The position numbers and the translations under genes are program-made. A stretch of DNA of 64,000 bases from Candidatus Bathyarchaeota archaeon (GTDB lineage Archaea; Thermoproteota; Bathyarchaeia; Bathyarchaeales; Bathycorpusculaceae), in assembly GCA_963775895.1 (NCBI GenBank), contig CAVZKL010000013.1:1-64000 (forward strand), read 5' to 3'. The notes beneath the pieces are model-generated. The model searched no databases and was not told the DNA's origin. It saw only the letters and a program-made list of their open reading frames with translations. The stretch's first letter is position 1. Each line of letters opens with the position of its first letter. Of the stretch, positions 601-22,535 are shown piece by piece.

Positions 601-1104
601 CTAATACACCGAGACCTTCGCTACCCCTTTGATTTTGAGCAATTCCTGAATGAGCTCTCCAGGGATCTGTTTTTCCACAATCAAGGTGAGTCTGGGTTCG
701 GGGGAAAGTTCTGGATCATCCACTATGGCTTGTCTTACGCTCAGTCCATTGTCTGCAAGGATCGTTGCTGCACTCGACAGGATGCCGGTGGCTCTAGCAT
801 CTACGGGTGTTATTTCGGCAACTCCGAGGTTTAGATGTCTCGCAACCTCTTTGAGCGAGTATCCAGCAGATCTAATGCCCTCAAACAATAATCTGAGATC
901 ACGATTGGAGCTGATTGCAGCTATTGTTTCTTTGACCGTTCGTCTGTCTACGCTAGCGACGCGGCCTATACGGACCGGTGGAATCTCGATTTCGTTGAGA
1001 TATATCTTGCCGTTTCTTAGGCTTAGCCCATTTTCTATGAGAACACGTGTTACTTTGAGTCTTTCTGGATGTCCCTCAAAGTATTCTTTTACGCTGTTCC
1101 ACAT
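601..1104 (-). CDS. trpY: ACT-domain amino-acid-responsive transcription regulator, TrpY-like
   Basis: N-terminal HTH-like segment (IGRVASVDRRTVKETI) and C-terminal ACT domain (GILSSAATILADNGLSVRQAIVDDPEL); divergent from trpB2 with TGTACA-like boxes between them. Confidence 0.75.
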   Translation of the reverse strand: MWNSVKEYFEGHPERLKVTRVLIENGLSLRNGKIYLNEIEIPPVRIGRVASVDRRTVKETIAAISSNRDLRLLFEGIRSAGYSLKEVARHLNLGVAEITPVDARATGILSSAATILADNGLSVRQAIVDDPELSPEPRLTLIVEKQIPGELIQELLKIKGVAKVSVY

Positions 1105-1119
1105 ATTCCGTTTCCTTTA

Positions 1120-1202
1120 TGTACATTTTTGTGCAATAAAGTATAAATATGTTCGTGTGATATTTTGTGTTCTTAACGTACATATATGTGCATAAAGGTA
1201 CA
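1120..1202. promoter_or_regulatory. TRP-box array (putative TrpY operator) in the divergent trpY/trpB2 promoter
   Basis: TGTACA-N4-TGTGCA (1120-1135) and CGTACA-N4-TGTGCA-N4-GGTACA (1177-1202); matches the TGTACA box known for Methanothermobacter TrpY. Confidence 0.7.
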
Positions 1203-1215
1203 TTGGTGAACTGAA

Positions 1216-2574
1216 TTGGCACAATTGAACGAGCGAAAATACTTCACAATGTTGGACCCGGATGACATGCCGACTTCATGGTACAACATTCAAGCAGACC
1301 TTCCCGATGCTCTGCCTCCTCCTCTAGACCCGACGACTCTCAAGCCAGTCGATCCTCGAATGCTTGAACGGATATTCGCAAAAGAGCTTGTAAGACAGGA
1401 AGCAAGTACGGAGAGACACATCAGGATTCCAGACGAGGTTTTTGACGCCTACTTGGCTCTTCCCCGGCCGACTCCATTATACCGTGCCAGAAGGCTCGAA
1501 AAACACCTCAAGACGCCCGCCCAAATCTATTTCAAGTGTGAAAACTTCAGCCCCACAGGAAGCCACAAGAACAACACAGCTCTTGCACAGGCTTATTACA
1601 ACAAGAAGCAGGGAATAGAAGGATTGGTCACTGAAACAGGAGCTGGACAATGGGGCACGTCTCTAGCTCTAGCCACTGCACTCTTCGAGTTAAAGTGTCG
1701 AATCTACATGGTTCGAATAAGCTATCAACAGAAGCCAGGTAGAAGAATTCTCGCCCAATTATACGGTGCAGAAATGTTTCCATCTCCAAGCGACAAAACT
1801 GATTTCGGCCGAAGACTACTGAATGCAGATCCAAATCATCCGGGAACACTCGGAATAGCCATAACCGAGGCAATTGAAGACACCTTAGCTCATGATGACA
1901 CGCGTTATTCGCTCGGTTCGGTCCTGAACCACGTTCTTATGCATCAGACGATCATTGGCTTAGAGGCAAAGAAACAGTTCGATCTTCTCGACGTAAAACC
2001 AGATGTGATCTGCGGCTGCATAGGCGGAGGCTCCAACTACGGTGGCTTCTGTTTCCCCTTCATGAAGGATAAATTGAAGGGCAAGACTGACACGGAATTC
2101 GTTGCCTGTGAATCAAGGGCGGTTCCACACACCACCAGAGGCATCTACCAGTACGATTTCGGCGACACAGGCAAGATGACTCCTCTCCTAAAGATGTTGA
2201 CAATAGGGCATGACTACGCATGTCCACCTGTCCATGCTGGTGGCTTGAGATACCATGGAATGGCTCCGTTGCTATCTTACTTGCTTTACAAAGGATATGC
2301 GCGTTCCGTCGCTTACGGTCAAAAGGAGGTTTTTGACGCTGCCAAGCTTCTAATCCAAACGGAGGGCTTGATTCCTGCTCCAGAAACAACACACAGCTTG
2401 AAGTTCGTCGTGGACGAGGCATTGAACTGCAGGAAGACCGGTGAAAAGAAGGTGATAGCCATGAACTACAGTGGACACGGTCTGCTTGACTTGTCCGCTT
2501 ATGAACAGTATTTGGCAGGAAGACTCGTGGAATATGAGCCTGCCAAAATAGAAGTTGCAAGCGTCGGCCATTAG
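1216..2574 (+). CDS. trpB2: TrpB2 (tryptophan synthase beta-like PLP enzyme)
   Basis: SPTGSHKNNTA, TETGAGQWG, GCIGGGSN, HAGGLRYHG, SGHGLLDL motifs; long TrpB2-type N-terminus. Confidence 0.92.
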   Translation: MAQLNERKYFTMLDPDDMPTSWYNIQADLPDALPPPLDPTTLKPVDPRMLERIFAKELVRQEASTERHIRIPDEVFDAYLALPRPTPLYRARRLEKHLKTPAQIYFKCENFSPTGSHKNNTALAQAYYNKKQGIEGLVTETGAGQWGTSLALATALFELKCRIYMVRISYQQKPGRRILAQLYGAEMFPSPSDKTDFGRRLLNADPNHPGTLGIAITEAIEDTLAHDDTRYSLGSVLNHVLMHQTIIGLEAKKQFDLLDVKPDVICGCIGGGSNYGGFCFPFMKDKLKGKTDTEFVACESRAVPHTTRGIYQYDFGDTGKMTPLLKMLTIGHDYACPPVHAGGLRYHGMAPLLSYLLYKGYARSVAYGQKEVFDAAKLLIQTEGLIPAPETTHSLKFVVDEALNCRKTGEKKVIAMNYSGHGLLDLSAYEQYLAGRLVEYEPAKIEVASVGH

Positions 2575-2589
2575 AAAGGTGGAGACCTG

Positions 2590-3231
2590 ATGACTACTGC
2601 GATGTTGAAAATGGATTCAAGGCTCAAGTTGGCGTTGCTGCCTATTGACGCGCTAAGGCCGCATGAAAGGGGTTTGTCTTTGTACCTGCAGGTTTTGAAA
2701 CGGGAGATTGTTCGAGACGGTGTACTTAGGTTTCCGATTATCGCTGATGAGAAATCCCACGTTATCCTAGATGGAATGCATCGTTGGCTTGTCCTGAAAA
2801 GCCTAGGCTACAAAGAAATTCCAGCGATACTAATTGATGCACAAGGAGACATTGGCATCCGCGTCGGGAGAAGAAGAATTCATCGGTACATGATTGATCC
2901 AACCGAAGAAATACACGTTGAAGAAGTTATCTCAGCAGGACTTAGTAGGCAATTGATGAAGCCACGTTCAACTAGGCACTTCTTTCCTTTCTCTAAGCGC
3001 CAAGAAATCAACTTTCCACTCAATCTTCTGAAGAAAGGATCCGAACAGGATGTTTCAGAATATCTCTCGGAAAATTCGCCTGAGAAATGTGGCGAGGTTA
3101 TGAATGAGTGGTTGCAGGAGATATGCGAAGAGCTGGAGTTCTTGGCTAAGAGAAAGGAAGAGGTTGAGAAAGAAAAACAAGAGTTGATCAACAGAGTAAC
3201 CAACTTGCGCGACTGCCCTGTAACGCGTTAG
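2590..3231 (+). CDS. ParB/Srx N-terminal-domain protein (SerK/SbnI-like candidate)
   Basis: LRPHE...PII...ILDGMHRW motif and later STRH; C-terminal coiled coil. Confidence 0.65.
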   Translation: MTTAMLKMDSRLKLALLPIDALRPHERGLSLYLQVLKREIVRDGVLRFPIIADEKSHVILDGMHRWLVLKSLGYKEIPAILIDAQGDIGIRVGRRRIHRYMIDPTEEIHVEEVISAGLSRQLMKPRSTRHFFPFSKRQEINFPLNLLKKGSEQDVSEYLSENSPEKCGEVMNEWLQEICEELEFLAKRKEEVEKEKQELINRVTNLRDCPVTR

Positions 3232-3305
3232 CAACCCTTTTTAAATCTCATTGGCCAATCTTATCAGTTGTTGCCCAAGAAAACAGATGCTGTTGACGAG
3301 GTCAT

Positions 3306-4412
3306 TTGATGATTCAGATTAATGCCCCTCAAATCGGAAAGGAGGAAATCAGGGCTGTTGTGAAAGTTCTGAAAAGTGGGATTCTGACTCATGGGATTGG
3401 CGCGGGCCCCAAGGTCATCGAATTTGAGAATCTCTTCTCGAAATATGCAAAGGCCAAATATGCCGTAGCTGTCAGCACTGGAACAGCTGCCTTACATTCG
3501 GCACTCGCAGCCGCAGGCGTGAAACAAGGCGATGAGGTGATTCTGCCGAGCTTTACATTTGTGGCGACTGCCGAGGTCATTGTCTTCAACAGAGCCAAAC
3601 CAGTCTTTGTGGACATCAATCCGATTACCTACACTATTTCACCTGAGAAAATCGAGAAAGCCATAACCCAAAAAACTGCGGCGATCATGCCCGTTGACCT
3701 TTATGGGATGCCTGTTGACATGAAACCGATCAGGGAAATTGCTGACAGACACGGATTGAAGATCATTGAAGATGCAGCTCAGGCTCATGGAGCTGTCTAC
3801 ATGGGAAAACCGCCCGGTGCTTTCGCTGATGCCGCATGTTGGAGTTTCTACGGGAGCAAGAACATGACGACGGGCGAAGGTGGAATGTTGACCACTAATA
3901 ACGGTGAACTCGCTGAGACAGTGAAAATCATTCGAAGTCACGGAGAGAAACAGAAATACATGTCCGTTATGTTGGGACATAACTATCACATGCCAGAAAT
4001 TGAAGCTGCCATAGGAAGCGTTCAGCTGAAGAAACTGCCGAAGTTCGTTGCCAAGAGACGTTCGAACGCGAAGAGACTGAGCGAGATTCTTGTAAAAACG
4101 GACAAGCTTGATCTTCCAATGGAGCCAGAGGGGTTCAAATGCAGTTATTATCTTTACACTGTGAGACTGAAAAACGCGAAAGCCGAGAGAAGAGACGCGC
4201 TGGTCGAAAAGCTGAAGCAGGAAGGGATAGGAGCTTTCGTTTGCTACGTTAATCCCATCCATCTAATGCCCTACTACAGAAGATTCGGAAAGTACAGACT
4301 TCCAGTAACAGAATCCCTTGCCAAGCAAGTCTTCTCATTGCCGGTCCATCCAGGTGTCACCCCAAGTCAAATCAGGTTCATAGGCGAAACAACGCTAAGA
4401 TTATTGCAATAG
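3306..4412 (+). CDS. DegT/DnrJ/EryC1/StrS family aminotransferase
   Basis: STGTAALH, IEDAAQAHG, SFYGSKNMTTGEGG motifs. Confidence 0.9.
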   Translation: MMIQINAPQIGKEEIRAVVKVLKSGILTHGIGAGPKVIEFENLFSKYAKAKYAVAVSTGTAALHSALAAAGVKQGDEVILPSFTFVATAEVIVFNRAKPVFVDINPITYTISPEKIEKAITQKTAAIMPVDLYGMPVDMKPIREIADRHGLKIIEDAAQAHGAVYMGKPPGAFADAACWSFYGSKNMTTGEGGMLTTNNGELAETVKIIRSHGEKQKYMSVMLGHNYHMPEIEAAIGSVQLKKLPKFVAKRRSNAKRLSEILVKTDKLDLPMEPEGFKCSYYLYTVRLKNAKAERRDALVEKLKQEGIGAFVCYVNPIHLMPYYRRFGKYRLPVTESLAKQVFSLPVHPGVTPSQIRFIGETTLRLLQ

Positions 4413-11514: not shown

Positions 11515-11611
11515 GTAAATCACTTCGTACAGGTTAGGTGGAATTCTTTATTAGCGTTTGACTTATTACAGTTACGCATCATCCTTGGCAACGGTCCGAG
11601 GAATTGTCGTC

Positions 11612-12988
11612 ATGATAGAGATAGAGAACAGGGAACAGTTGGTCAACAACGGTGGGACTCAGCTCGACAGGAAAGCGAGGGAACTTGCTTTGAGAGCTCT
11701 TGAAGCCGCGTTGAGAGCCGCTGACCCAAAGCAGATAGTTAAATCAAAGGTAGTGCTGAGAGACTCTGTCCTGAAAGTCGATGAGTATTCATTTGACCTG
11801 AAGAGGTTCAAGAGCGTCTATGTCGTGGGGGGCGGCAAAGCAAGCGGTTCTATGGCTGAGGCGTTGGAACAGGTTCTGGGCAGGCGCATAACCGCGGGAA
11901 TTGTGAATGTTTTGCATGGAAGTTCGAACAGGACTAGCGTTGTGAAGCTGCACGAGGCTAACCATCCTGTCCCCGATGAGGCAGGCGTGGAAGGAACGCG
12001 CAAAATGCTTGACCTTGCTGAAGCTGCCACAGCGGATGATTTGGTTATCTGTCTGATATCGGGTGGTGGCTCGAGTATGATGCCGCTGCCTCGCGGAGGA
12101 ATATCGCTGAGGGACAAGCGGCTGATGACTGACCTTTTGTTGAAGAGTGGAGCAACGATAACGGAGGTTAACACCGTGCGGAAGCACATTTCAGAGTTCA
12201 AGGGCGGTTGGCTTGCAAAGAAGGCTTATCCTGCCACTGTTTTGAACTTGATTCTGTCGGATGTTATGGGTGATCCGTTGGAATTCATCGCCTCAGGTCC
12301 AACGGTTCCTGATTCCACGTCGTTCAGTGATGCGATAGCCGTTTTGAGGAAGTATGGTCTGTGGGAGAGGGCTCCGTCATCAGTGGTCAAAGTGTTGTCG
12401 GATGGTGAGCGAGGGCTTATCGCCGAAACACCGAAGGCGAATGATGAGTGTTTTGAAAAAGTCTATAACGTTGTGATAGGGAACAATCGGCTTGCGAGTC
12501 AAGCGGTGTGCGCCGAGTTGAAGTCAGCGGGTTTGAACACGCTTCTGTTGACGTCGATGTTGGAGGGTGAGGCTAGGCACGTTGGAACGGTCTTGTCGTC
12601 GATAGTTCGCGAAGTCTCGGTTTCGGGCAATCCCGTTCATAAGCCTGGAGCCATAGTTGCTGGGGGAGAAACAACCGTGACGGTCACTGGGAAAGGGAGG
12701 GGGGGAAGAAATCAGGAGATCGTGTTGGCTGCAGCATTGAAACTTGCAGGTGCAGAGGGCGTGGTGGTTGCGTCCTTGACGACTGACGGCGTTGATGGAC
12801 CGACTGACGCTGCGGGAGCGTTGGTGGATGGAAAAACGCTTGTTAGAGCGAAGAAGATGGGGTTGGCCGTTGAGGGGTTTTTGGCGGATAATGATTCGTA
12901 CGATTTCTTTTTGAGGATGGGTGACCTTATTTTCACGGGGCCTACGGGTACAAACGTGAATGACATTTCGTTGGCTATTGTTCTGTGA
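11612..12988 (+). CDS. Glycerate 2-kinase (MOFRL family)
   Basis: GGGKASGSM, LISGGGSS, SDVMGD..IASGPT, GGETTV, GRGGRNQE, TGTNVND. Confidence 0.9.
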   Translation: MIEIENREQLVNNGGTQLDRKARELALRALEAALRAADPKQIVKSKVVLRDSVLKVDEYSFDLKRFKSVYVVGGGKASGSMAEALEQVLGRRITAGIVNVLHGSSNRTSVVKLHEANHPVPDEAGVEGTRKMLDLAEAATADDLVICLISGGGSSMMPLPRGGISLRDKRLMTDLLLKSGATITEVNTVRKHISEFKGGWLAKKAYPATVLNLILSDVMGDPLEFIASGPTVPDSTSFSDAIAVLRKYGLWERAPSSVVKVLSDGERGLIAETPKANDECFEKVYNVVIGNNRLASQAVCAELKSAGLNTLLLTSMLEGEARHVGTVLSSIVREVSVSGNPVHKPGAIVAGGETTVTVTGKGRGGRNQEIVLAAALKLAGAEGVVVASLTTDGVDGPTDAAGALVDGKTLVRAKKMGLAVEGFLADNDSYDFFLRMGDLIFTGPTGTNVNDISLAIVL

Positions 12989-13007
12989 GATTGGAAGGAA
13001 TGGCGTG

Positions 13008-13292
13008 ATGGTTGTCAGCGTCAAATTCGTGGGGTCTTTTCGCGGTTTTTCTGGAAGAAGTGGGTTGAGGATGAGGTTTGTGAAGTCGGTTTCGGTTGAG
13101 GTTGTGGTGAAGAAGGTTGTTGAAAAGCTGCCCGGGTTGGAGGCGGCTCTGATCGATTCCAGTTCGGGCGAGCCGAGGCGGAACGTGCTCGTGCTCGTGA
13201 ACGGTAGGGAGATCGGCGTTTTGGACGGTTTTGAGACGGTTGTTGCTGATGGGGATGAGGTGGTCTTCGTTCCCGTTGCGCATGGGGGCTGA
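13008..13292 (+). CDS. MoaD/ThiS ubiquitin-like (SAMP) protein
   Basis: VLVNGREI...DGDEVVFVPVAHGG with C-terminal diglycine. Confidence 0.85.
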   Translation: MVVSVKFVGSFRGFSGRSGLRMRFVKSVSVEVVVKKVVEKLPGLEAALIDSSSGEPRRNVLVLVNGREIGVLDGFETVVADGDEVVFVPVAHGG

Positions 13293-13296
13293 GGGT

Positions 13297-14050
13297 TTGA
13301 AGCTTTATCCGATTAAGACGCGGACCGTTAAAGTGGGTGATGGACTCGTTGAGCTGATTCTTGAGTCGTTGGAGGCTCAGGGATTAGCGTTGATGGATAA
13401 TGATGTTTTGGTTTTGACTTCGAAGGTTGTGTCTTTTTCGGAGGGGCGTGTTGTGAAGCTGAGTGGGGTGAAGCCTTCGGCGAAAGGCAGGAGGCTTGCT
13501 GTGCGGTATTGTTTGGAGCCGGAGTTTGCGGAATTGGTGGTGCGGGAGGCGGAGCGGGTTTGTGGTGGTGTTAAGAGGGCTGTTCTTACGTTGAAGCATG
13601 GGATCATGATTGCGAATGCGGGGATCGATAACAAGAATGCGCCTGCTGGGCACGTGGTTTTGTGGCCTGCGGACCCTGAGAAGATCGGTTGCAGACTTCA
13701 GAGAGGCTGTTCTGCGTGAGACTGGAAAGACTGTTGGTGTGATGGTGGTGGACAGTGGTTTGATACCGCTCAGGATAGGCACGATCGGTTTGGCGTTGGC
13801 TGTGGCTGGTTTCAGGCCGATCAGGGATGACCGGGGCCGGGCTGATATTTTCGGGAGAAAAGTGACGATTACGCGGCAGGCTGTGGCTGATGATCTTGCT
13901 TGTGCGGCACATTTGATGATGGGAGAATCATCGGAGAAGGTTCCTGCCGTGTTGATTCGTGATGCTCCCGTCGTTTTTGATGATGGTGTTTATGGTTCGA
14001 AGGATATGATGATGCCGTTTAAAGAGTGCTTGTTCATGAATGCGTTTTGA
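13297..14050 (+). CDS. cofE: Coenzyme F420-0:L-glutamate ligase (CofE-like), frameshifted near 13680
   Basis: SKVVS, ANAGIDNKN in the first frame; VVDS..RIGT.G, ADDLACAAHLMMGE in the second frame. Confidence 0.8.
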
Positions 14051-14282
14051 CAGACGCGTGCATTGTAGAGACACGGGAAGATTTTGGCGTCATCGCGGGT
14101 TGCGTCCGTTACGTTTTAATGGCTGTTTTTTCAGCCATTGTGTACCTCCCCTCCTCGGTTTCAATGTATCGTGAATATTAGGATCCAAATAGCCTTAACT
14201 TTTTTCTTCAAGGCTCTCAGACCCAAGAATCAAGGGGTCAAACTGGCTTAAAAAGAATATGTCGAAAGCGTAGAACAGCAAT

Positions 14283-14837
14283 TCATTTGGTTTTTGTCAG
14301 AACTCTTGGTTCTTTCCATTCTTCTAGGAGAATATCGTAGAGAGTTTTATCTCTCCATTCTCCTCTCACGAAACTTAGCTTTCGGATAGTTCCTTCTGCT
14401 TTAAAGCCTGCCTTCTCCAAAACCCTCTGTGCCACCTTGTTCTCCACATTCGCTTTTGCTTGTATGCGAACGATGTTTCTGTAGATGAACAGATTATCAA
14501 CCATTAACTGAACCGCTTCTACCCCGTATCCTTTCCCCCTTTCACTAGGAACCAAAAAGCAACCGAGTTCCATCGTCCCGTATGGTTGATTGGTAAATTG
14601 GAACATAAGCCCTATTTTGGTTCCGTCCTTCTTCTGAATTATGAACTTTTTCCACTCAATCAAATTTTCCAAGTAAGAACGAGGAGTATCAAACCATTTC
14701 ATCCATTCTGATTTCGACATCTGCCCAAAAAGAGGGTTGTTATATTCCGCCCAGAAATCTACGTCACCAAGACCAACTAGAAAATCAACATCCTCTTTCT
14801 CAATCACTCTCAGATTCACTAGTTTACCTTCAAGCAT
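14283..14837 (-). CDS. GNAT acetyltransferase, RimJ/RimL family
   Basis: MLEGKLVNLR, ERGKGYG, NKVAQRVLEKAGF.EG. Confidence 0.9.
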   Translation of the reverse strand: MLEGKLVNLRVIEKEDVDFLVGLGDVDFWAEYNNPLFGQMSKSEWMKWFDTPRSYLENLIEWKKFIIQKKDGTKIGLMFQFTNQPYGTMELGCFLVPSERGKGYGVEAVQLMVDNLFIYRNIVRIQAKANVENKVAQRVLEKAGFKAEGTIRKLSFVRGEWRDKTLYDILLEEWKEPRVLTKTK

Positions 14838-14855
14838 CTCAATTCACCAATCCTA

Positions 14856-15414
14856 TCAAGCGGTTTTCGTTAGTATTTTTGGTTCTTTCCATTCCTCTCT
14901 GAGGATGCTGAGGAGATAGACATCATTCCATACTCCTCTCACAAGCGCGGTTTTTCGCATAGTTCCTTCTATTTGGAAACCTACTTTCTTCAAAGTCTTC
15001 TGTGCCTCCTTGTTTCTTACATTTGTGGTTGTTTGTATACGAACAATGTCTTTGCTGAGAAACAGGTAATCAACCATTAGTTGAGTCGCTTCTGCTCCGT
15101 AATCCTTTTCCTCTCTCGCTGGGAACCAAGAAACAGCCAAATTCCATCGTCTCGTATGGCTGATTGGTAAATTGGCACATAAGCCCTATTTTGGTTCCGT
15201 CCTTCTTCTGAATTATGAACGGGTTGTCCATCACCGCTTTTTGAAAGTCGTTGGGATAATTATCAATCCATTGCGTCAAACCCCATTTTGGAATCTGCTC
15301 AAAAACAGGATGCGTGTATTCCCCCCAGAAATCTATCTGATTAAAACACGCAAATTGAAAATCAACGTCCTCTTTCTCTACCTTTCTCAAATTCACAAGT
15401 TTACCTTCAAGCAA
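14856..15414 (-). CDS. GNAT acetyltransferase, RimJ/RimL family; tandem paralog, frameshifted near 15100
   Basis: Two overlapping ORFs (15070-15414 and 14856-15140) join into a close paralog of 14283-14837. Confidence 0.8.
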
Positions 15415-15442
15415 CTCAACTCACCAATCATACGCTAACTTA

Positions 15443-15482
15443 CGGTTTGGCTATAACTTTTCCGCAAAACCAAAAACTGGCT
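15443..15482 (+). repeat. Cassette-junction repeat copy 1 (long form)
   Basis: CGGTTTGGCTATAACTTTTCCGCAAAACCAAAAACTGGCT. Confidence 0.9.
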
Positions 15483-15557
15483 ATATCCGTGTCAATGATT
15501 CTACCGAGAATTTTATCTGTCTGACGTGATAGACCTATCGAGAAGTGAGGGACGAAA

Positions 15558-16106
15558 ATGGGCTATCCAAGTGAATGGGAAAAAGTGTTCACGCTGAAGA
15601 ACGGCATGAAAGTTAACTTTCGACCTGAACAGTCTGGAGACACGGAAATGCTGTGGAGAATGTTCTCCACACTATCAGAGAAAAGCCTGTCGAACATGGT
15701 TGCTCCGTTCACTAGAGAACGAATAGAGGGATGGACAAGCAACATAGATTATGACAAAGTCCTAGCGATTGTTGCCGTAATTGAGGAGAAGAACGAGCAA
15801 CGAATTGTTGGCTCAGCATCACTTCTCTTTTACGAGCAGGAAACCTACAGACACAAGGGTGGGCTTGGGATTACTGTGCATGACGACTATCAAAACATGG
15901 GCATAGGCTCAGCAATGTTAAAACACCTGCTTAATATTGCCAGAATGAAAAAGCTCACAAAAATCTCTCTTATCGTAGATGCTGACAACGACAGAGCAAT
16001 TCACATTTACAAGAAAGCAGGTTTCGAAATAGAAGGAAAACTCCGCAACGAGAAATATCATAAAGGTCAATATAGTGACGAGTACAGAATGGCGATTTTC
16101 CTATAA
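15558..16106 (+). CDS. GNAT acetyltransferase
   Basis: GITVHDDYQNMGIGSAML, NDRAIHIYKKAGFEIEG. Confidence 0.9.
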   Translation: MGYPSEWEKVFTLKNGMKVNFRPEQSGDTEMLWRMFSTLSEKSLSNMVAPFTRERIEGWTSNIDYDKVLAIVAVIEEKNEQRIVGSASLLFYEQETYRHKGGLGITVHDDYQNMGIGSAMLKHLLNIARMKKLTKISLIVDADNDRAIHIYKKAGFEIEGKLRNEKYHKGQYSDEYRMAIFL

Positions 16107-16144
16107 ACAGCAACCGTCAGAAGCCACTAAGACTTGGTCCATTT

Positions 16145-16184
16145 CGGTTCGGCTATGACTTTTACGCAAAACCAAAAACTGGCT
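16145..16184 (+). repeat. Cassette-junction repeat copy 2 (long form)
   Basis: CGGTTCGGCTATGACTTTTACGCAAAACCAAAAACTGGCT, 37/40 identical to copy 1. Confidence 0.9.
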
Positions 16185-16210
16185 CATAAAGCCTTGATAG
16201 AGCAAAAAAA

Positions 16211-17197
16211 CTATGCGTATTTTCCGAGCTCACTAAGTGATGGCAAGATTACAGTATCACATATCTTATCCAATTTGGCTTGTCTAGCTATGGAAGTCCA
16301 CATCTTCTCTGTAACGACAATATCGCAATATGGTATAGCTAGAGTTAAGAACCATATGTCATTAAAGTCGTTCTTTGGTATAGGTCGTTGAAATTGCTGG
16401 TCACGTTGAAAGATTAGCGTGAAAAAACATAGAGCGGTCGGGATACTGCCAAGAAATTTATTTACGTCTCTCAGAGTCGGCTTTTCTGCAATGAAGAAAT
16501 GTTTAGGAAGATTGTATTCAATCGATATCTTTGCTAGTTCTGGCACAACGACAGCGAGGATATTTCTTGCCAAAAACACTCTTTTTCTCAGATTGTTGTC
16601 CTTTATTTCGCGTAGTTCCTGTCGAATTTTCTCCATCTCCTTGACTGGCTCCTCTAACCCTAGAATTAATGACTTGGGAAGACTCTGTTTTAGTAATAAC
16701 TCGATTGTTTTGGGTTCTTCCAATTTATCCAAGAGTTTCTTCTCAATCTCTTGGATAACCTCAGGACTTGCAAAGCCTTTCTTAAACACTAATTCGGGCT
16801 TTGCTCCGACTAAATGGGAAACCCCTTTTTTCAAAACAAAATCCCTTATGTTCACGGTAGGTAAAGCCACTTTCCTAAACACTATATTCTGAATTTCAGC
16901 TTCAATGACTTTCTCGACATATGGCTGTAATGCATAACCTTGTGATAGTTTTGCCATCAAGAAAGCTAGTTGGCTCTTACGTCTGCTACTTGCGATTTTC
17001 ATTGTCTCTTCGAAATGCGATATAGACAGAGGAAATATCAGTTGACCTTTCTCAGAGGATTGAAAGATTTTCCCTACTAGTTCTTTTTCTTCTTTTGTTG
17101 GTTGACCATAATACAATTTTGCGATATCAATCCAACATTTTTGGTCGAGGTAAACAATTTTGGTTGGTGCTCTTCCTTTTTCTGTTTTCTCCATCAC
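16211..17197 (-). CDS. Hypothetical protein with PIN-like nuclease signature
   Basis: IVYLDQKCWI...SISHFEE...NDFNDIWFL..AIPYCDIVVTEK: acidic residues in PIN-like order around a helical insert. Confidence 0.55.
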   Translation of the reverse strand: MMEKTEKGRAPTKIVYLDQKCWIDIAKLYYGQPTKEEKELVGKIFQSSEKGQLIFPLSISHFEETMKIASSRRKSQLAFLMAKLSQGYALQPYVEKVIEAEIQNIVFRKVALPTVNIRDFVLKKGVSHLVGAKPELVFKKGFASPEVIQEIEKKLLDKLEEPKTIELLLKQSLPKSLILGLEEPVKEMEKIRQELREIKDNNLRKRVFLARNILAVVVPELAKISIEYNLPKHFFIAEKPTLRDVNKFLGSIPTALCFFTLIFQRDQQFQRPIPKNDFNDIWFLTLAIPYCDIVVTEKMWTSIARQAKLDKICDTVILPSLSELGKYA

Positions 17198-17216
17198 AAT
17201 TTTAATTAGTTCTTTA

Positions 17217-17230
17217 GGTTCAGCTATAAC
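17217..17230 (+). repeat. Cassette-junction repeat copy 3 (left half only, overlaps the stop codon of 17224-17802)
   Basis: GGTTCAGCTATAAC. Confidence 0.75.
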
Positions 17231-17802
17231 CTAATCTCTTCTGAGCTGATAGTTCTTACAAGGTCTCTTGATTGAGCGTTGATGTTTATCTTGTCCAGAG
17301 ATAGTCTGTCGACAGTATCGAAACTGTTAATCTCTAGCGATTTTGCTTCTTTCAACGCTTGAGAAAACAATTTCGCATCGAAATTGTAAGTCTTAGGGTC
17401 CAGAACGTTGTACTCTGGCGTGTGCTTCACGAACAAACCCATCCCAATATGCGGAATGTACTCGATATCTCTCCTCAAGTGAGGTGAAAGGATGCCAGTA
17501 TAGAGGTCATCATGCAATGCGATGGCATTTCCATTTCCTTTTTTCAAAAGAAGAAATAGCCAGTAGTCCCAAGATTTCGCAAAGCCTTTCATTTGAATGG
17601 GGAAAGGTTTCCAATTCTTTAACACCGCTCTAATGTGTTTAACTAGCTTTGATTCTTCAACCTCGCTACATTGGACTGGAAACAAGAATGGTATGTGTGG
17701 TTTCAAAGAACCCACGTAAGGGTCATATTTCCTGCGAAACGCCTCGATACTTGCTTGTGTCTTCTTGTCAAACCTTGGATAATAAAGCAACACATAATGC
17801 AT
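17224..17802 (-). CDS. 2H phosphoesterase (2'-5' RNA ligase-like) protein
   Basis: RRKYDP..PHIPF and YIPHIGMG, degenerate HxT pair. Confidence 0.75.
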   Translation of the reverse strand: MHYVLLYYPRFDKKTQASIEAFRRKYDPYVGSLKPHIPFLFPVQCSEVEESKLVKHIRAVLKNWKPFPIQMKGFAKSWDYWLFLLLKKGNGNAIALHDDLYTGILSPHLRRDIEYIPHIGMGLFVKHTPEYNVLDPKTYNFDAKLFSQALKEAKSLEINSFDTVDRLSLDKININAQSRDLVRTISSEEIRL

Positions 17803-17877
17803 AATGAAAGAAGATAACGAGCTTTCTATTAAAACCTAATCCAGTCACTTTTGGTTCTCGATTCTGCCAAAACTTTG

Positions 17878-17916
17878 GGTTCAGCTATAACTTTTCTGCA
17901 AAACCAAAAACTGACT
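17878..17916 (+). repeat. Cassette-junction repeat copy 4 (long form)
   Basis: GGTTCAGCTATAACTTTTCTGCAAAACCAAAAACTGACT. Confidence 0.9.
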
Positions 17917-17970
17917 TAGAAGTGAATAGAAGAAAATTCTATTGTGGCTTGAGGCTCCCCAATTAAGCTG

Positions 17971-18639
17971 TTATTTTAACTCAAAAGTATGGATAGTCTT
18001 GAGTTTTGGATGTTTCTTGAATAAATGAGCGTTCACTAGCTCTATGGAATTAACAGTCATTTTTCCAAACTCTGTATCTCTCAGCTTTTCTAGGTAGCTG
18101 ATTAGTCTGGTGAAATCTTCGTTCTTCTGAAAATGCATTATGCTGATGTGAGGCAAAAAACTTGGATAGTCAAATTTCCTCTTTCTTATCTCGGGTATTG
18201 CTTGCAGTCTTCTATGTATCTCTTCAATTTTGTTCCCATCATGAACCTCCACAAATACAACATCTGGGAAAATGTTGAGTTTAGAAAGGAATACATCAAA
18301 TTTGCTGAATTGTTGTAAGACTTCTTTCGCTTGATTGATTATTCTCTGCAAGTTCTCAACCAAAATATCGTCTTCATATTCTTCTGATTTTGCCAAGAAT
18401 CCAAGCCCCATTACAGATATGTGAAAATAGTCTTTCGGGAAGGGAGCAACACAAGAAATAGTGGATACCCAACTCTGAATCTCAACTATCTTCTCAATCA
18501 GTCCCGCATCTCTAATCCTTACATGAAAAGTCAGATATTGATTTCTTCCTTTAGTCCATTCATTGTCAACCCAATATTTCGTTAGATTCAATTGGACGTT
18601 CTTTCTTCTTTCCCAAACATCTGTAAATCTGTCGCTCAT
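17971..18639 (-). CDS. 2H phosphoesterase (2'-5' RNA ligase-like) protein
   Basis: FHISV and PHISI (two HxS motifs). Confidence 0.8.
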   Translation of the reverse strand: MSDRFTDVWERRKNVQLNLTKYWVDNEWTKGRNQYLTFHVRIRDAGLIEKIVEIQSWVSTISCVAPFPKDYFHISVMGLGFLAKSEEYEDDILVENLQRIINQAKEVLQQFSKFDVFLSKLNIFPDVVFVEVHDGNKIEEIHRRLQAIPEIRKRKFDYPSFLPHISIMHFQKNEDFTRLISYLEKLRDTEFGKMTVNSIELVNAHLFKKHPKLKTIHTFELK

Positions 18640-18683
18640 ACATTCAATTGACAGTCTTTCTTACCTAAAGTCTTTTTGAACTA

Positions 18684-18717
18684 TGCGGTTCAGCTATAAC
18701 TTTTCCGCAAAACCGCA
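18684..18717 (+). repeat. Cassette-junction repeat copy 5 with extended inverted arms
   Basis: TGCGGTTCAGCTATAACTTTTCCGCAAAACCGCA (TGCGGTT/AACCGCA arms). Confidence 0.9.
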
Positions 18718-18777
18718 GGCGTGAAACCTAAAAACAAGAAGAAGAGACGGGAAAAGAAAGTGAGGTTGATATTTTTG

Positions 18778-19269
18778 CTACTCTTTGGTCTTTGCAGAAG
18801 GCTTCCTAAGCATTGAACCAGCGTAGAGCCCGATGAAAATGATGACGAAACCAATGATCGTAATAATGCTTACCATGACTGCCGAGTAGGCGGCATATTC
18901 ATAAGGTGTCCATCCACTCGTGGTGAACATGCTGTTTAAGTCCTGCGTGAACCAAGCACTTCCGTAGGCGTTGCATATCCAGACTGAATCGAATACCAAG
19001 ATCGTGAAGGCGGAGAGAACATCAATAACTCCTATTGCCTTGATTCTAGAGTCCTCTTGAATCTTCAGGGCAAAAACATAACCAACAACAAGTGAAGATA
19101 TGAGAACGGCAATAATGAAAGAAAGCATGTCAGCTAGCCTGTCATTATTCATTGATATTAATCCGACCATCAAGAATGCATTAAGGATTAACCCCAACAG
19201 AACCAAAGAAACCGTAGCTATAATCACGTTACCAAATTTCAACCAATCACCTCCCTCAGAATTAAACAA
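18778..19269 (-). CDS. Four-TM membrane protein; likely start TTG near 19242 after GGAGGTGA
   Basis: Four hydrophobic segments and a strong SD sequence. Confidence 0.7.
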   Translation of the reverse strand: MFNSEGGDWLKFGNVIIATVSLVLLGLILNAFLMVGLISMNNDRLADMLSFIIAVLISSLVVGYVFALKIQEDSRIKAIGVIDVLSAFTILVFDSVWICNAYGSAWFTQDLNSMFTTSGWTPYEYAAYSAVMVSIITIIGFVIIFIGLYAGSMLRKPSAKTKE

Positions 19270-19282
19270 TCAGATGTATTCT

Positions 19283-19310
19283 CGGTTCAGTTATAACTTT
19301 TCTGCAAAAC
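19283..19310 (+). repeat. Cassette-junction repeat copy 6
   Basis: CGGTTCAGTTATAACTTTTCTGCAAAAC. Confidence 0.85.
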
Positions 19311-19344
19311 TCCAATTATCACAATTTTGGTTTGAACGTAGAGC

Positions 19345-19770
19345 CTAGTTTTTCTTCTGGGTCTGGCTACAGGTGTAACATATTTTGTTGTGGACACAGA
19401 TTGTTCCGCCACAATTGGGGCATTTCCATCTTTCTTGTTCGTTTTTCAGGAATTGTTCGATACCGTTTGTCTGAATGTAATTGAGATTCTCAATCATACT
19501 CATTCCATACTTGTTTCTGTAACGCTTGTCAAGTGTTCTTAGATTTTCACATGGAAAGTCTGTGCATTCAAAACAATACTCAATCTGTTTAGTTGCCAAC
19601 TTATCGCACTTTTCCTTAATAAATGCACATTGGTTCTTCCTTGACCGACAGGTGTTACAGCGATGTTTTCTCTTTTTGCCTTTCATTGTATAGCCAAAAA
19701 AAGCTACACATATTCCACAGTTCATTCCGCACGGTGCGATTAATTCGGGCAGAAATTTCCCTTTTCGCAT
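19345..19770 (-). CDS. DUF3795 cysteine-rich protein
   Basis: APCGMNCGIC, CNTC, C..C, YCFEC.DFPC, W.CPNCG. Confidence 0.8.
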   Translation of the reverse strand: MRKGKFLPELIAPCGMNCGICVAFFGYTMKGKKRKHRCNTCRSRKNQCAFIKEKCDKLATKQIEYCFECTDFPCENLRTLDKRYRNKYGMSMIENLNYIQTNGIEQFLKNEQERWKCPNCGGTICVHNKICYTCSQTQKKN

Positions 19771-19837
19771 AAGATAGCCGAGTGATGAAACGCTATCTTA
19801 ACTATTTGGGTTTGGTGGGTAGAGTCTATCCGATTTC

Positions 19838-20383
19838 TCAAACGGTTTTTGTCAGTATTTTTGGTTCTTTCCATTCTTCTCTGAGGATGCTGTAGAGGTA
19901 GCTGTCTCTCCTCACTCCATTTACAGATTTTCTTATCGTTCCTTCCTTCGCAAAGCCTGCTTTTTCTAGCACTCTTTGTGAACCTGTATTCTTTATGGAG
20001 GTTTATGCTTGTATTCTGCTTACATCCATGGAAAGGAACAGATAATCCACCATTAGTTGAGCTGCTTCAGTGCCGTAGCCCTTACCCCTTTCGCTTTGAA
20101 CTACCATTTAACCTATTTCCAACAGTTTCGCTCCACCTATATACGAATTGTAGAAGGTTACATTCCCGATTCTAGTTCTATCTTTCTTCTCAATTATGAA
20201 CCCTCTTAATCCATCAGGAGCGCTGCGGTTTTTTTCAAACATCTTCTCCATATCTGTTCTTGAATCCTGTGTAGGGAAAGGCAAATACTCCCCTGTGAAT
20301 TTTGGGTCGTTCCACCATTCCGTAAGCAGTGGCAAGTCCTCTTTCTCCGTGACTCGGAGATTCACTTTCTTACCTTCAAGCAA
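19838..20383 (-). CDS. GNAT acetyltransferase, RimJ/RimL family, frameshifted near 20105
   Basis: MLEGKKVNLR N-half; the C-half in another frame ends YSILREEWKEPKILTKTV like its paralogs. Confidence 0.8.
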
Positions 20384-20411
20384 CCCAAATCACCACTAAG
20401 ATGATAGAAAT

Positions 20412-20440
20412 GGTTCAGCTATAACAATTCCGTAGCATCC
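20412..20440 (+). repeat. Cassette-junction repeat copy 7 (right arm degenerate)
   Basis: GGTTCAGCTATAACAATTCCGTAGCATCC. Confidence 0.75.
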
Positions 20441-20507
20441 TAACTTGGGTTGGATAGAGTTATATCAACGTTGATATCATTGTGAAAAAGTGTTGAAGGA
20501 AAACTAA

Positions 20508-20897
20508 ATGAGTCGAGTTGGAAAAGAAGACCCTGTTAAGGCTCACCGTGATGGAACAGCGCTATACGAGAGTGGAAACTACAAAGGCGCCATGGACAAG
20601 TTTCTGCAAGCCTATCCTTTGTACGAGAAGGTGGGTGATTTCTTCGATGCTTCATACGTGCTGTTTAAAGCGGCTGAATGCAGCTTCTTCTTAAAAAACT
20701 ATGAAATCGCCATAGAACGCTTCCTAAAAGCTGCTAACATAGCTTTAGAAAGAGGCTACGACCGCTTCAACCTAAGTGCGCTAGAGTATGCACAAGACTG
20801 CTACAGAGCAGCAGGAAAGGAAAGCGACAATGAAGTTGCAGAGTTGAAGAAGAGAATAGCTGAGGTGAAGAAGAAAATCGAAGCCCAAGCCGTCTGA
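20508..20897 (+). CDS. TPR/SNAP-like helical repeat protein
   Basis: GTALYESGNYKGAMDKFLQAY; AAECSFFLKNYEIAIERFLKA. Confidence 0.7.
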   Translation: MSRVGKEDPVKAHRDGTALYESGNYKGAMDKFLQAYPLYEKVGDFFDASYVLFKAAECSFFLKNYEIAIERFLKAANIALERGYDRFNLSALEYAQDCYRAAGKESDNEVAELKKRIAEVKKKIEAQAV

Positions 20898-20911
20898 TTT
20901 GTTGGTTGGTT

Positions 20912-20938
20912 GGTTGGATAAAACTTTACCCCCAAACC
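20912..20938 (+). repeat. Cassette-junction repeat, variant B
   Basis: GGTTGGATAAAACTTTACCCCCAAACC aligns with the consensus; followed by GCGTGAAAACCT as after copy 5 (GCGTGAAACCT). Confidence 0.65.
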
Positions 20939-20995
20939 CAAACGAATTGCGTGAAAACCTGCTAGAATCTGGCGTGCTGAGTTAACGGGAAACGT

Positions 20996-21277
20996 TCAGA
21001 GAGGTTTGTAGGCAATGTTCTTTCGGGTTTCTATTATGACGTATATTCTCAATGCTGCGTAGATCAGAAAAGCCGTCGTCCACGCGGCAAAAACCGTGAT
21101 TCCAAAGAGAAAATTCTTCAAGACTATTATCAACCAGAAACATGTTCCGCCAGCAACCCAAGGAAGCACGATCCCACAAATATCTAGCACCAGAATGAGG
21201 AATTGATCGTGAATCACAAGCCTAGGTCTTTTCCGAACCCAAGCCTCAGCCCAAGCCTCATAGTCCATGATAAACAC
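20996..21277 (-). CDS. Small membrane protein
   Basis: 93-aa ORF with two hydrophobic segments. Confidence 0.5.
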   Translation of the reverse strand: MFIMDYEAWAEAWVRKRPRLVIHDQFLILVLDICGIVLPWVAGGTCFWLIIVLKNFLFGITVFAAWTTAFLIYAALRIYVIIETRKNIAYKPL

Positions 21278-21333
21278 ACTTCCTCGAGGTCGCCATTATA
21301 TACACTGCGCGGTGTACTACTTATTCCTTTTGA

Positions 21334-21359
21334 GATAAAACTTTGCCCCCCAAAACCCC
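21334..21359 (+). repeat. Cassette-junction repeat, variant B, right end of the array
   Basis: GATAAAACTTTGCCCCCCAAAACCC. Confidence 0.6.
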
Positions 21360-21482
21360 AAAGCCCCAAAACGCGTACGCTTACATTTAAACCAATAACC
21401 AAAGTTCTTTAGCGCGCGCGTTAGCCTAACGTCTTAAGCTTGCTCTCCAAATATGCAGGTGCTTCTGGGTTGGAGGTGTTGA

Positions 21483-22535
21483 TCAGCCGAACCATTTTTC
21501 GAGCGTGGTCTTTCCTTTCTCTTTGGTGATGCCTTTCTGCATCTTTTCTAGTGCTTTGCGGACGCGGTCTTCTGAAAAGTCTCTTCCTCTGACGATGAAG
21601 TCCACGGTGTTTTCGACGTCGGGGGGTTTCCAGTCTAGGTTGTAGTTTTCGGTCACAGTTGGGTGGAGAAAAATCTCTCTGATTCTTTGAGGTTCAACGG
21701 GAAACTCTGCGTTTTTGGCGTATGGAATCGCTTGCTCCAGAGTGCCGTGCTCTTTTATGAGTTTCAAGGCAGTTTTCGGTCCTAAACCCTTGATGCCGTC
21801 AGGATTGAAGTCCGTTCCGATCAGAATCCCCACGTCAATCAGCTGCTCATAGGTTATTCCACATTCTTTGAGAACCTGATCCAGCTCGACGACTTCGGGA
21901 ATGACTTCGATGTAAATGTTCTTGCTGGGAAGCTTTCTTCGTCCCGAAATGGTTACGTTTCTAATGAACTTGGGAGCGCCGAAAAGAAGGCTGTCATAGT
22001 CTTGACTTGCACAGTAGTCAGCGTCGCCCTTTCTCGTCATGTGTGCGGCCTGGGCTTCTCCTTCGCTTGGCGCTTGAACCCAGGGAACACCCAGCAAGCG
22101 CAAAAGCGTCTTGCTGTCTTCAGCCATGTAATCTTTCAGGTGAGAAGTAGCTTGGGCGTAGACGCGGGCCTCCTCAACTTTTCCCTCCTTCAAAGCACGC
22201 TCATAGAGCACCAAGGCTTCTTCTTTGACTTTCCTGCGTCTTTTGATTTCAACTTCTTTTAGCACGGGAGGGGCTCCGTCAAAAACGTAGATTGGTCTAA
22301 TGCCCAACTCCACCAAATTGCTTGTCCGATAGAGCAAGCCGCTAAGGTGACTGGTAACCCTGCCTGAACTGTCCTTCAACGGAGTTCCATCGGGTTGACG
22401 AATTATGGCCAAGAACTGATAGAGGGCATTGTACGCGTCAATCGCGACGATCTTGCCGCTCAAATCCTCAAGCCTGACCAGCGTTTTCGGCACAAGATCG
22501 CGAAGGTCGACGCCCAAAAAGTAACCCCTTTTCAA
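21483..22535 (-). CDS. fen: Flap endonuclease 1
   Basis: AIDAYNALYQFLAIIRQPDG, APSEGEAQA, SQDYDSLLFG, GTDFN, C-terminal PIP-like TTLEKWF. Confidence 0.95.
   Translation of the reverse strand: MKRGYFLGVDLRDLVPKTLVRLEDLSGKIVAIDAYNALYQFLAIIRQPDGTPLKDSSGRVTSHLSGLLYRTSNLVELGIRPIYVFDGAPPVLKEVEIKRRRKVKEEALVLYERALKEGKVEEARVYAQATSHLKDYMAEDSKTLLRLLGVPWVQAPSEGEAQAAHMTRKGDADYCASQDYDSLLFGAPKFIRNVTISGRRKLPSKNIYIEVIPEVVELDQVLKECGITYEQLIDVGILIGTDFNPDGIKGLGPKTALKLIKEHGTLEQAIPYAKNAEFPVEPQRIREIFLHPTVTENYNLDWKPPDVENTVDFIVRGRDFSEDRVRKALEKMQKGITKEKGKTTLEKWFG

Follow-up and report, generated by a model that had tools for sequence, protein, structure and literature searches.

The stretch of DNA analysed here, 64,000 nucleotides (nt) from the genome of a Candidatus Bathyarchaeota archaeon (GCA_963775895.1, hereafter the source genome), is called the window throughout, and our subject is a short repeated motif, motif A, at the gene junctions between cofE and fen. 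The original prediction took these two genes as the borders of an array, and their Pfam matches uphold that. The interval holds 11 genes. Four encode GNATs, of which three are close paralogues (two frameshifted) and one, on the plus strand, is more distant; the others encode a pair of 2H phosphoesterases, a DUF3795 protein, a TPR-like protein and three proteins without a family match. The description of about 11 mostly unrelated small genes is therefore right in number but only partly so in kind, given the four GNATs (three close, one distant) and the pair of 2H phosphoesterases. With a GC content of 0.37–0.43, compared with 0.47–0.54 in the flanks, the array is a compositional island. Motif A was first read as the recombination site of an integron-like system; we conclude instead that it is probably a promoter of archaeal type shared by unrelated accessory genes and often joined to the terminator of the gene before.

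On the plus strand motif A is the 28-mer GGTTCAGCTATAACTTTTCCGCAAAACC, and its reverse complement, GGTTTTGCGGAAAAGTTATAGCTGAACC, is the promoter sense. Allowing up to three mismatches, the 28-mer is found at 15444, 16146, 17878, 18687 and 19284, always on the plus strand, and none of 100 shuffled sequences contained any match. Its first 14 bases, with up to two mismatches, occur at seven places (17217 and 20412 being added), again all on the plus strand, where 0.22 were expected and none of 100 shuffles reached seven. The positions first given for the motif were correct to within 0–3 bases, the reported co-orientation holds for all seven A copies, the two copies bracketing the plus-strand GNAT do agree at 37 of 40 positions, and at both thresholds the 64 kb contain no further copy, as had been stated. 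That the motif ignores gene orientation, on the other hand, is true of one A copy in seven (16146, an orphan) and of one of two copies of variant B (20912), but not of the other six A copies, each of which has a co-oriented start 14–75 nt downstream in the promoter sense on the minus strand. On the promoter reading, the shared direction of the window copies follows from the minus-strand position of every gene served by them. Coordinates are collected in Table 1.

Table 1. Genes and motif copies in the cofE–fen interval of the window (for motif copies, the strand is that of the promoter sense)
Feature	Coordinates	Strand	Remarks
cofE (F420_ligase)	ends 14050		Pfam; split into two frames
Lone tail remnant (AGCCAGTTT in promoter sense)	14240..14248	minus	35 nt past last GNAT stop
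GNAT acetyltransferase, intact, 184 aa	14283..14837	minus	Pfam Acetyltransf_3, E 6.8e-15
Frameshifted GNAT paralogue	14856..15414	minus	ORFs 14856-15140 and 15070-15414
Motif A with tail	15444..15482	minus	faces GNAT start TTG 15414, 29 nt away
Distant GNAT, 182 aa	15558..16106	plus	Pfam Acetyltransf_1, E 2.7e-16
Motif A with tail, orphan	16146..16184	minus	no gene to drive; followed by a 13-codon ORF alone
328-aa protein	16211..17197	minus	no Pfam, NCBIfam or PADLOC match
Half motif, TATA-side half alone	17217..17231	minus	19 nt upstream of start of 328-aa gene
2H phosphoesterase superfamily protein, 192 aa	17224..17802	minus	Pfam 2_5_RNA_ligase2, E 1.1e-14
Motif A with tail	17878..17916	minus	75 nt upstream of start 17802
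Single-gene unit	17949..18714	minus	motif A 18687-18714, 47-nt leader, 2H phosphoesterase 17971-18639, 22-nt 3' flank
Second 2H phosphoesterase	17971-18639	minus	Pfam 2_5_RNA_ligase2, E 5.9e-16
Membrane-like 163-aa protein	18778..19269	minus	no family match
Motif A	19284..19311	minus	14 nt before TTG 19269; 41 nt before next candidate start 19242
DUF3795 protein, 141 aa	19345..19770	minus	Pfam DUF3795, E 1.4e-6; no motif A copy ahead
Third GNAT paralogue, frameshifted (two ORFs)	19838..20383	minus	repeat families D1, D3, D4, D7; ORF 20108-20383
Motif A, TATA-side half conserved	20412..20439	minus	28 nt upstream of TTG 20383; upstream array end
TPR-like protein, 129 aa	20508..20897	plus	weak sub-cut-off Pfam TPR matches
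Variant B	20912..20938	minus	between converging ends of TPR and 93-aa genes; no gene to drive in either sense
Membrane-like 93-aa protein	20996..21277	minus	no family match
Variant B	21334..21354	minus	56 nt upstream of 93-aa gene
fen	21483-22535	minus	Pfam XPG_N / XPG_I

In the promoter sense GGTTTTGCGGAAAAGTTATAGCTGAACC consists of a purine-rich B recognition element (BRE) followed by a TATA-like box. A G at −6 and an A at −3 mark a strong BRE according to a published study (PMC11065993), and both bases, counted back from the box, stand in the purine run of motif A (GCGGAAAAG before TTATAG) and of variant B (GGGGTAAAG before TTTTAT). The opposite sense presents a pyrimidine-rich stretch with T at −6. 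The orphan copy at 16146 has both an altered TATA-like box (GTCATAG) and an altered BRE (GCGTAAAAG), while the half motif at 17217-17231 contains the stop codon of the preceding gene. The plus-strand GNAT has a TATA-like AATTTTATC of its own upstream.

Orientation and spacing were tallied with gene calls from a simple codon-usage caller of open reading frames (ORFs) trained on the source genome. Across the source genome, loci of five congeners and locus L043, a promoter-sense start lies within 150 nt of 37 of the 49 A copies; an opposite-sense start was found for eight of the 49, six of which also have one in the promoter sense. At 80 independent metagenome loci, 96 of the 106 copies had 250 nt or more of contig, and 70 of these 96 have a promoter-sense start within 120 nt, and the remaining 26 comprise seven at convergent stops, 14 with nothing near and five inside a called gene. 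The commonest gap between motif and start is 29–32 nt in the metagenomes (18 of 70 copies) and 29–30 nt in a second tally, which places the box about 43–45 nt before the start codon. For comparison, in 831 source-genome genes with an upstream spacer of at least 90 nt, the medians of enriched TATA-like 7-mers (TTAAATA, TTTATAA and others) range from −43 to −58; AGTTATA, seen 16 times where 2.2 were expected (7-fold), has its median at −48.5. The box of the motif thus stands where the TATA-like words of this genome stand.

The genes behind motif A are diverse. Their proteins fall into 18 families among 33 in the genus set and into 38 families among 73 at the metagenome loci, with GNAT the largest in both (14 and 17 members, respectively). 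Other downstream proteins from the metagenomes, named by eye, include DinB-like, SRPBCC-like, SnoaL-like and glyoxalase-like proteins, methyltransferases, HAD proteins, alpha/beta-hydrolases and many membrane proteins.

Directly upstream of the motif, and after the stop of the preceding gene, many copies have a tail that reads AGCCAGTTTTT in the promoter sense. In the window it continues three A copies (as AAAAACTGGCT at 15472, 16174 and 17906), and the possible lone tail reported at 14240 is indeed present as AAACTGGCT at 14240-14248, where it marks the downstream end of the array; locus L043 has the same GNAT pair followed by the full tail and motif 3 nt past the stop. Among 83 metagenome copies, conservation beyond a 22-base anchor extends through TGAACC downstream and through the T-run and tail (present in 41 of the 83) upstream, and then stops. 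The repeated unit is therefore a terminator–promoter junction of 28–45 nt with sharp edges, and the leaders and genes on both sides of it are unrelated. Oligo-T tracts are a known archaeal termination signal, and the tail is presumably the oligo-T, terminator-like end of the preceding gene.

These features suggest how the module may work. The usual archaeal distance from box to transcription start is about 25 nt; on that spacing, TBP and TFB bound to the module would start transcription about 13–17 nt past the motif and leave a short leader, with a GGTGA-type ribosome site and then the start codon about 29–32 nt after the motif. In the leader of the 15444 copy a Shine-Dalgarno-like GGTGA lies 9–13 nt before the TTG. 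Neighbouring units would share one compact terminator–promoter junction, and we propose that, by virtue of the terminator-like tail and the promoter, each gene forms an insulated transcription unit of its own. The half-sites GGTTTTGC and GCTGAACC flank the BRE and TATA-like box, and six of eight positions agree when one is reverse-complemented; a regulator acting as a dimer could bind to such imperfectly symmetric sites. From this layout we infer where transcription starts, that it terminates at the T-run and that a regulator binds the module. The array, a low-GC island of accessory genes, would have arisen as GNAT genes were duplicated and single genes were gained and lost.

Motif A is not confined to this array; it is also found on other contigs, in genomes of the same genus and in metagenomes. 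In the source genome A-like copies stand before genes on contigs C10 (four copies), C16 and C18, and single copies precede unclustered genes (e.g. C10:46745, C16:47182 and C18:103579), as they do in relatives. Among 31 related genomes scanned, the 28-mer (up to three mismatches) occurs in seven of the 10 other genomes of the genus, exactly in four of them, and once each in two other genera of the family; the 12 genomes of other families have none. An exact 22-mer of motif A was found in at least 120 stretches of Joint Genome Institute (JGI) metagenome contigs. In the source genome, 42 of 58 copies of the 9-mer core AAAGTTWTA are intergenic, although intergenic DNA makes up about 16% of the genome. 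Occurrence throughout the genome before unclustered housekeeping genes, or invariant gene content, had been named in advance as grounds for giving up the capture reading. This applies only in part: unclustered single copies do occur, but the genes behind them are accessory and content is not invariant among relatives. The form of the sequence, its orientation, its spacing and its conservation across genomes are all observed, and we consider it likely that a genus of Bathyarchaeia has a conserved intergenic transcription module with motif A at its core.

Variant B is GGTTGGATAAAACTTTACCCCCAAACC at 20912, and the copy at 21334 is looser; both lie where they had first been placed (20912-20938 and 21334-21354). 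A and B share the core GGWAAAGTTWTA, and hybrids occur (C10:110770). A second TATA-like word at 21295-21302 is nearer to the ATG at 21268 than is the B copy at 21334. The source genome has about 20 B-like copies on eight contigs and on both strands, and a B 21-mer (up to two mismatches) is present in all 10 other genomes of the genus and rare outside it; a reversed control pattern gave 0–1 matches. Many B copies lie in long spacers, with low-complexity runs of the GGTTGG / CCAACC type alongside; at C9:210, C20:39984 and C27:38072 of the source genome, runs rich in CGACGA / GTCGTG lie beyond these repeats. GCGCGC words within 60 nt of B are found downstream in the promoter sense for 12 of 66 copies and upstream for four of 66, a difference too weak to build on. 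We regard B as a related and more widespread promoter-like intergenic motif of the genus, with a role less certain than that of A.

Several observations weigh against a plain promoter. Orphan copies exist at 16146 in the window and, with no gene behind them, at the downstream array ends of loci L023 (5208), L024 (3316) and L043 (4337), and the window has a truncated tail in that place at 14240. The distance from motif to start spans 10–116 nt among the metagenome copies, and starts are approximate because the gene calls come from a codon-usage ORF caller. For variant B (66 copies), a promoter-sense start lies within 100 nt of 18, an opposite-sense start near nine and converging gene ends around seven. 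An identity of 28 of 28 positions across species exceeds what a core promoter needs, and exchanged units that end at motif edges are not predicted by a plain promoter. Finally, a look for RNA sequencing runs covering positions 14000-21600 of the window gave none among those listed, and the transcript start and stop sites at the module are ones we infer from the sequence.

One alternative keeps the promoter. In this alternative, which we consider possible but rather unlikely, the module is both promoter and preferred crossover point, and units of mostly one gene are exchanged, lost, duplicated or brought in when its copies recombine, either by homologous recombination or in a way that homology facilitates; crossovers would favour the module because no other stretch remains identical between species that are only about 75% alike. 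What would arise, at the same limited probability, is an array of promoter-bounded cassettes that has no integrase dedicated to it. DNA common to the source genome and its congeners is mostly 70–78% identical, and four single-gene-sized segments stand far above this. Positions 17949-18712 of the window are 97.3% identical to L032 (genome G002), ending within a few bases of the upstream edge of the motif; the GNAT pair at 14289-15469 is 89% identical to L043, where it is bounded by the motif on both sides; C16:39327-40371 is 93% identical to L064 (G009), exactly from a B copy to an inverted B copy; and C7:792-1562 is 96% identical to L042 (G005), starting about 30 nt beyond the B copy of L042. 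No segment above about 82% came from 10 motif-free loci beside fen (about 183 kb). GNAT–HD pairs are common to the arrays of G001 and G002, with neighbours that change at motif positions, and contigs of four unrelated metagenomes cease to match the window at 15450, 15482, 17878, 18688/18709 and 20906-20943, all motif edges. Against this, the compared loci were picked for holding the motif, and breaks near it are expected from any whole-gene gain or loss because the spacers are short and largely motif. The 97% unit stops 22 nt beyond the stop codon at its 3' end and not at a motif, assembly of metagenomes from 31-base words tends to leave contigs that end or are wrongly joined at a repeat of 28–39 nt, and there are only four independent events. 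We thus give only limited credence to the idea that the module doubles as a junction for unit swapping within and between Bathyarchaeia species, whether by way of the shared regulatory sequence or of an enzyme that recognises it, and without attC hairpins or IntI.

Variation at the locus can also be seen on a larger scale. Array maps differ between genomes, and in ten genomes of the same genus or family neither array genes nor motif were found within 18 kb downstream of fen. The cofE-side and fen flanks are 49–73 kb apart in G001, G005, G008 and G009, so that the array lies at a rearrangement point (or an assembly join). Within 11558-22535 of the window, the cofE-side flank consists of a glycerate-kinase-like gene, ThiS and cofE, and its orientation relative to the fen flank differs in G001; the genes adjoining fen in G005 and G009 are located on contig C7 of the source genome. 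In G001, an HD-domain gene behind an A copy (L024 3999-4650) opens with GNAT-like codons (LLEGRN...). It shares 81% DNA identity over 81 nt with the window GNAT leader, which suggests capture or reuse of the promoter and 5' end of a GNAT gene. Inversion of the plus-strand GNAT cannot be traced because its co-oriented homologue in L036 shares no DNA similarity outside the motif. Summed depth of metagenome contigs peaks over the motifs and the conserved GNAT 3' end. Excision was considered from joints in these contigs and rejected: those that skip from 15482 to 19844 or from 15482 to 18687, and those that go back, rest on repeat sides of 20–40 nt at 90% likeness, and we read these odd joints as GNAT–motif junctions of other organisms or as repeat ambiguity.

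It is very unlikely that the motif is no promoter at all but a repeat of another kind, such as a small mobile element, a terminal repeat standing alone or a sequence, AT-rich in its middle, to which a chromatin or insulator protein binds. B copies often lie in long spacers or between converging genes next to the GGTTGG / CCAACC runs, one gene on C16 stands between inverted B copies, and the copies occur in low-GC DNA, with a mean of 0.42 around A and 0.44 around B compared with 0.48 for random 2-kb windows. The orientation of A and its spacing to start codons are, however, strongly non-random. Neither hairpins nor terminal inverted repeats of any strength were found (target-site duplications were not searched for), and symmetry of the motif ends is limited to GGTT...AACC, which is short of a miniature inverted-repeat or repetitive extragenic palindromic (REP) element. 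An Rfam scan gave nothing over threshold, CRISPR-DR21 (26.9 bits, threshold 48) and sR30 (17.9 bits, threshold 38) being taken as chance. The C16 gene, judged by eye, is unlike a transposase; its product (C16:39327-40371) has cysteine motifs of the 4Fe-4S ferredoxin type, also noted by eye, and the inverted B copies around it face outward to the neighbouring genes.

The reading from which we started, that the motif is the attachment site of an integron-like site-specific capture system with a recombinase acting in trans, fares worst of these and is highly improbable. Much of what inspired it is sound. The array is modular, with mostly one gene per unit and a common junction sequence, and content differs wholly between relatives; the cargo is typical of integrons (GNAT, DinB-like, SnoaL-like and glyoxalase-like proteins and membrane proteins, all but GNAT named by eye); and the arrays of L023, L024 and L043 have one motif more than genes. 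A gene with a PF00589 match adjoins the 97% unit in L032, and another adjoins the A copy at C18:103579. Units are of one gene and sites are co-oriented, but of the defining integron features the comparisons bear out only the variability of gene content between relatives. The motif has BRE/TATA form and lies 5' of genes at promoter distance (co-oriented starts for 37 of 49 and 70 of 96 copies), not 3' of an ORF; its conserved part is only 28–45 nt; and 12 folds of 66-nt stretches from eight window copies, taken on either strand as single-stranded DNA, gave z scores of −0.79 to +0.73 relative to shuffles. Many copies are single and stand before unclustered genes. The absence of an integrase from the window is confirmed, as PF00589 has 10 matches in the source genome and none on the 98.6-kb contig C13 that holds the window, and in the closed genome G001 the 50 kb to either side of each of the four A-motif sites contain no PF00589 match. 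A conserved array-linked recombinase was sought and discarded: the recombinase-like proteins beside the 97% unit in L032 (PF00589-type) and beside the L034 array (without a Pfam match) share just 21% identity, and neither has a relative in the source genome. At C18:102887-104727 of the source genome, a tRNA gene and a tyrosine recombinase gene (PF00589) are followed by an A copy placed to drive a 219-aa gene, an arrangement resembling the border of an integrated element in which the same promoter would be used. The motif is a tempting false positive in searches for new integron-like systems.

Two further candidates can be set aside: a CRISPR array, by copy spacings of 597–1732 nt with whole genes between and by the sub-threshold CRISPR-DR21 score, and a viral origin, as the A 22-mer occurs in one IMG/VR contig and the B 21-mer in none, and the window copies are set between chromosomal genes rather than in a viral or plasmid context.

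Some features of the locus call for comment beyond Table 1. In cofE, which encodes F420-0:gamma-glutamyl ligase (13231-14050), the ORF at 13231-13719 covers profile positions 2–132 and the overlapping ORF at 13610-14050 covers 125–218, so the split is either a frameshift or an assembly error. On the minus strand at 14109-14138, 60–90 nt past the cofE stop, there is an ORF of nine codons that has a strong ribosome site of the GGAGG type and overlaps an inverted repeat, perfect over 7 bp (ATGGCTG...CAGCCAT), whose loop is an A/T run. This could be a terminator-like hairpin or a relic. A degenerate motif-like word lies at 14185-14209. Both frameshifted GNAT paralogues still align over their full length with the intact copy at 14283-14837, the one at 14856-15414 through repeat families D1, D3, D4, D5, D7 and D8. 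The 3' end of the third (19842-20095) is conserved at the DNA level, and a summed contig depth of about 700–3700 in four unrelated metagenomes indicates that the GNAT family is massively repeated in such communities. The two adjoining 2H phosphoesterase genes (17224-17802 and 17971-18639) are distant relatives, one of them with an AKAP7-like match. Enzymes of the 2H phosphoesterase fold are known to break down signals made of 2',5'- or cyclic oligonucleotides; these two matched neither defence nor anti-defence proteins. Among the window array proteins, PADLOC gave a single weak match for the plus-strand GNAT (PDC-M38B, E 6e-4) and none for the other eight, and NCBIfam gave generic GNAT and 2H matches alone, every one under its curated cut-off.

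Literature searches found no paper on promoters or the TATA box of Bathyarchaeia (full text) and none that describes the motif; as far as these searches show, the promoters of this uncultured lineage, abundant in sediment and peat, are essentially undescribed. A module that marks at least 38 unrelated accessory families provides a sequence by which co-regulated accessory genes can be sought in metagenomes, a candidate for a strong promoter in genetic tools, and a place to ask whether conserved regulatory DNA anchors gene exchange between diverged species. Unit swapping at the module, if true, would amount to a promoter-bounded cassette system doing the job of an integron.

Several known systems resemble the proposed module in part. 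The operators of archaeal regulons have symmetric half-sites that straddle the BRE and TATA box, and their repressors block the binding of TBP and TFB. The half-sites over the BRE/TATA region found here are similar, and unrelated genes would likewise be co-regulated, but a regulon in which all 28 positions are identical across species and in front of more than 38 gene families would be unusually strict. In bacteria, the reuse of promoters ahead of non-homologous genes has been documented: putative mobile promoters are similar upstream sequences that precede non-homologous genes within and between species, their route of spread being unknown, and the survey that defined them, by an identity of 80% or more across 50 nt or longer in the region from −150 to −50, saw no events between Archaea and Bacteria (PMC3575422). 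Our module shares with them a similar sequence before non-homologous genes, but it measures 28–45 nt, short of the formal 50 nt, ends about 30 nt before the start, forms tandem arrays and has a terminator-like tail. In integrons, attC sites function in a folded, single-stranded form, and IntI is the enzyme that recombines them (PMC9668308). The likeness to integrons, including archaeal ones and integrase-less attC clusters, consists in mostly co-oriented single genes, a repeated junction, accessory cargo and variable content, whereas the motif here has no fold, is much shorter, lies 5' of genes with the form of a promoter and has no integrase nearby. The closest described case is the regulatory sequence shared by genes of archaeal viruses. 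The study reports a near-identical extended sequence of strong BRE and TATA box before early and anti-defence genes of SIRV2 and other viruses, some of these regulatory sequences having inverted repeats over the BRE that are taken as repressor sites (PMC11065993). The genes described here differ in belonging to cellular chromosomes of Bathyarchaeia, with no defence match above a weak level. The two cases are alike in that many small, unrelated and singly transcribed genes, of at least 38 families here, stand behind a near-identical extended core promoter.

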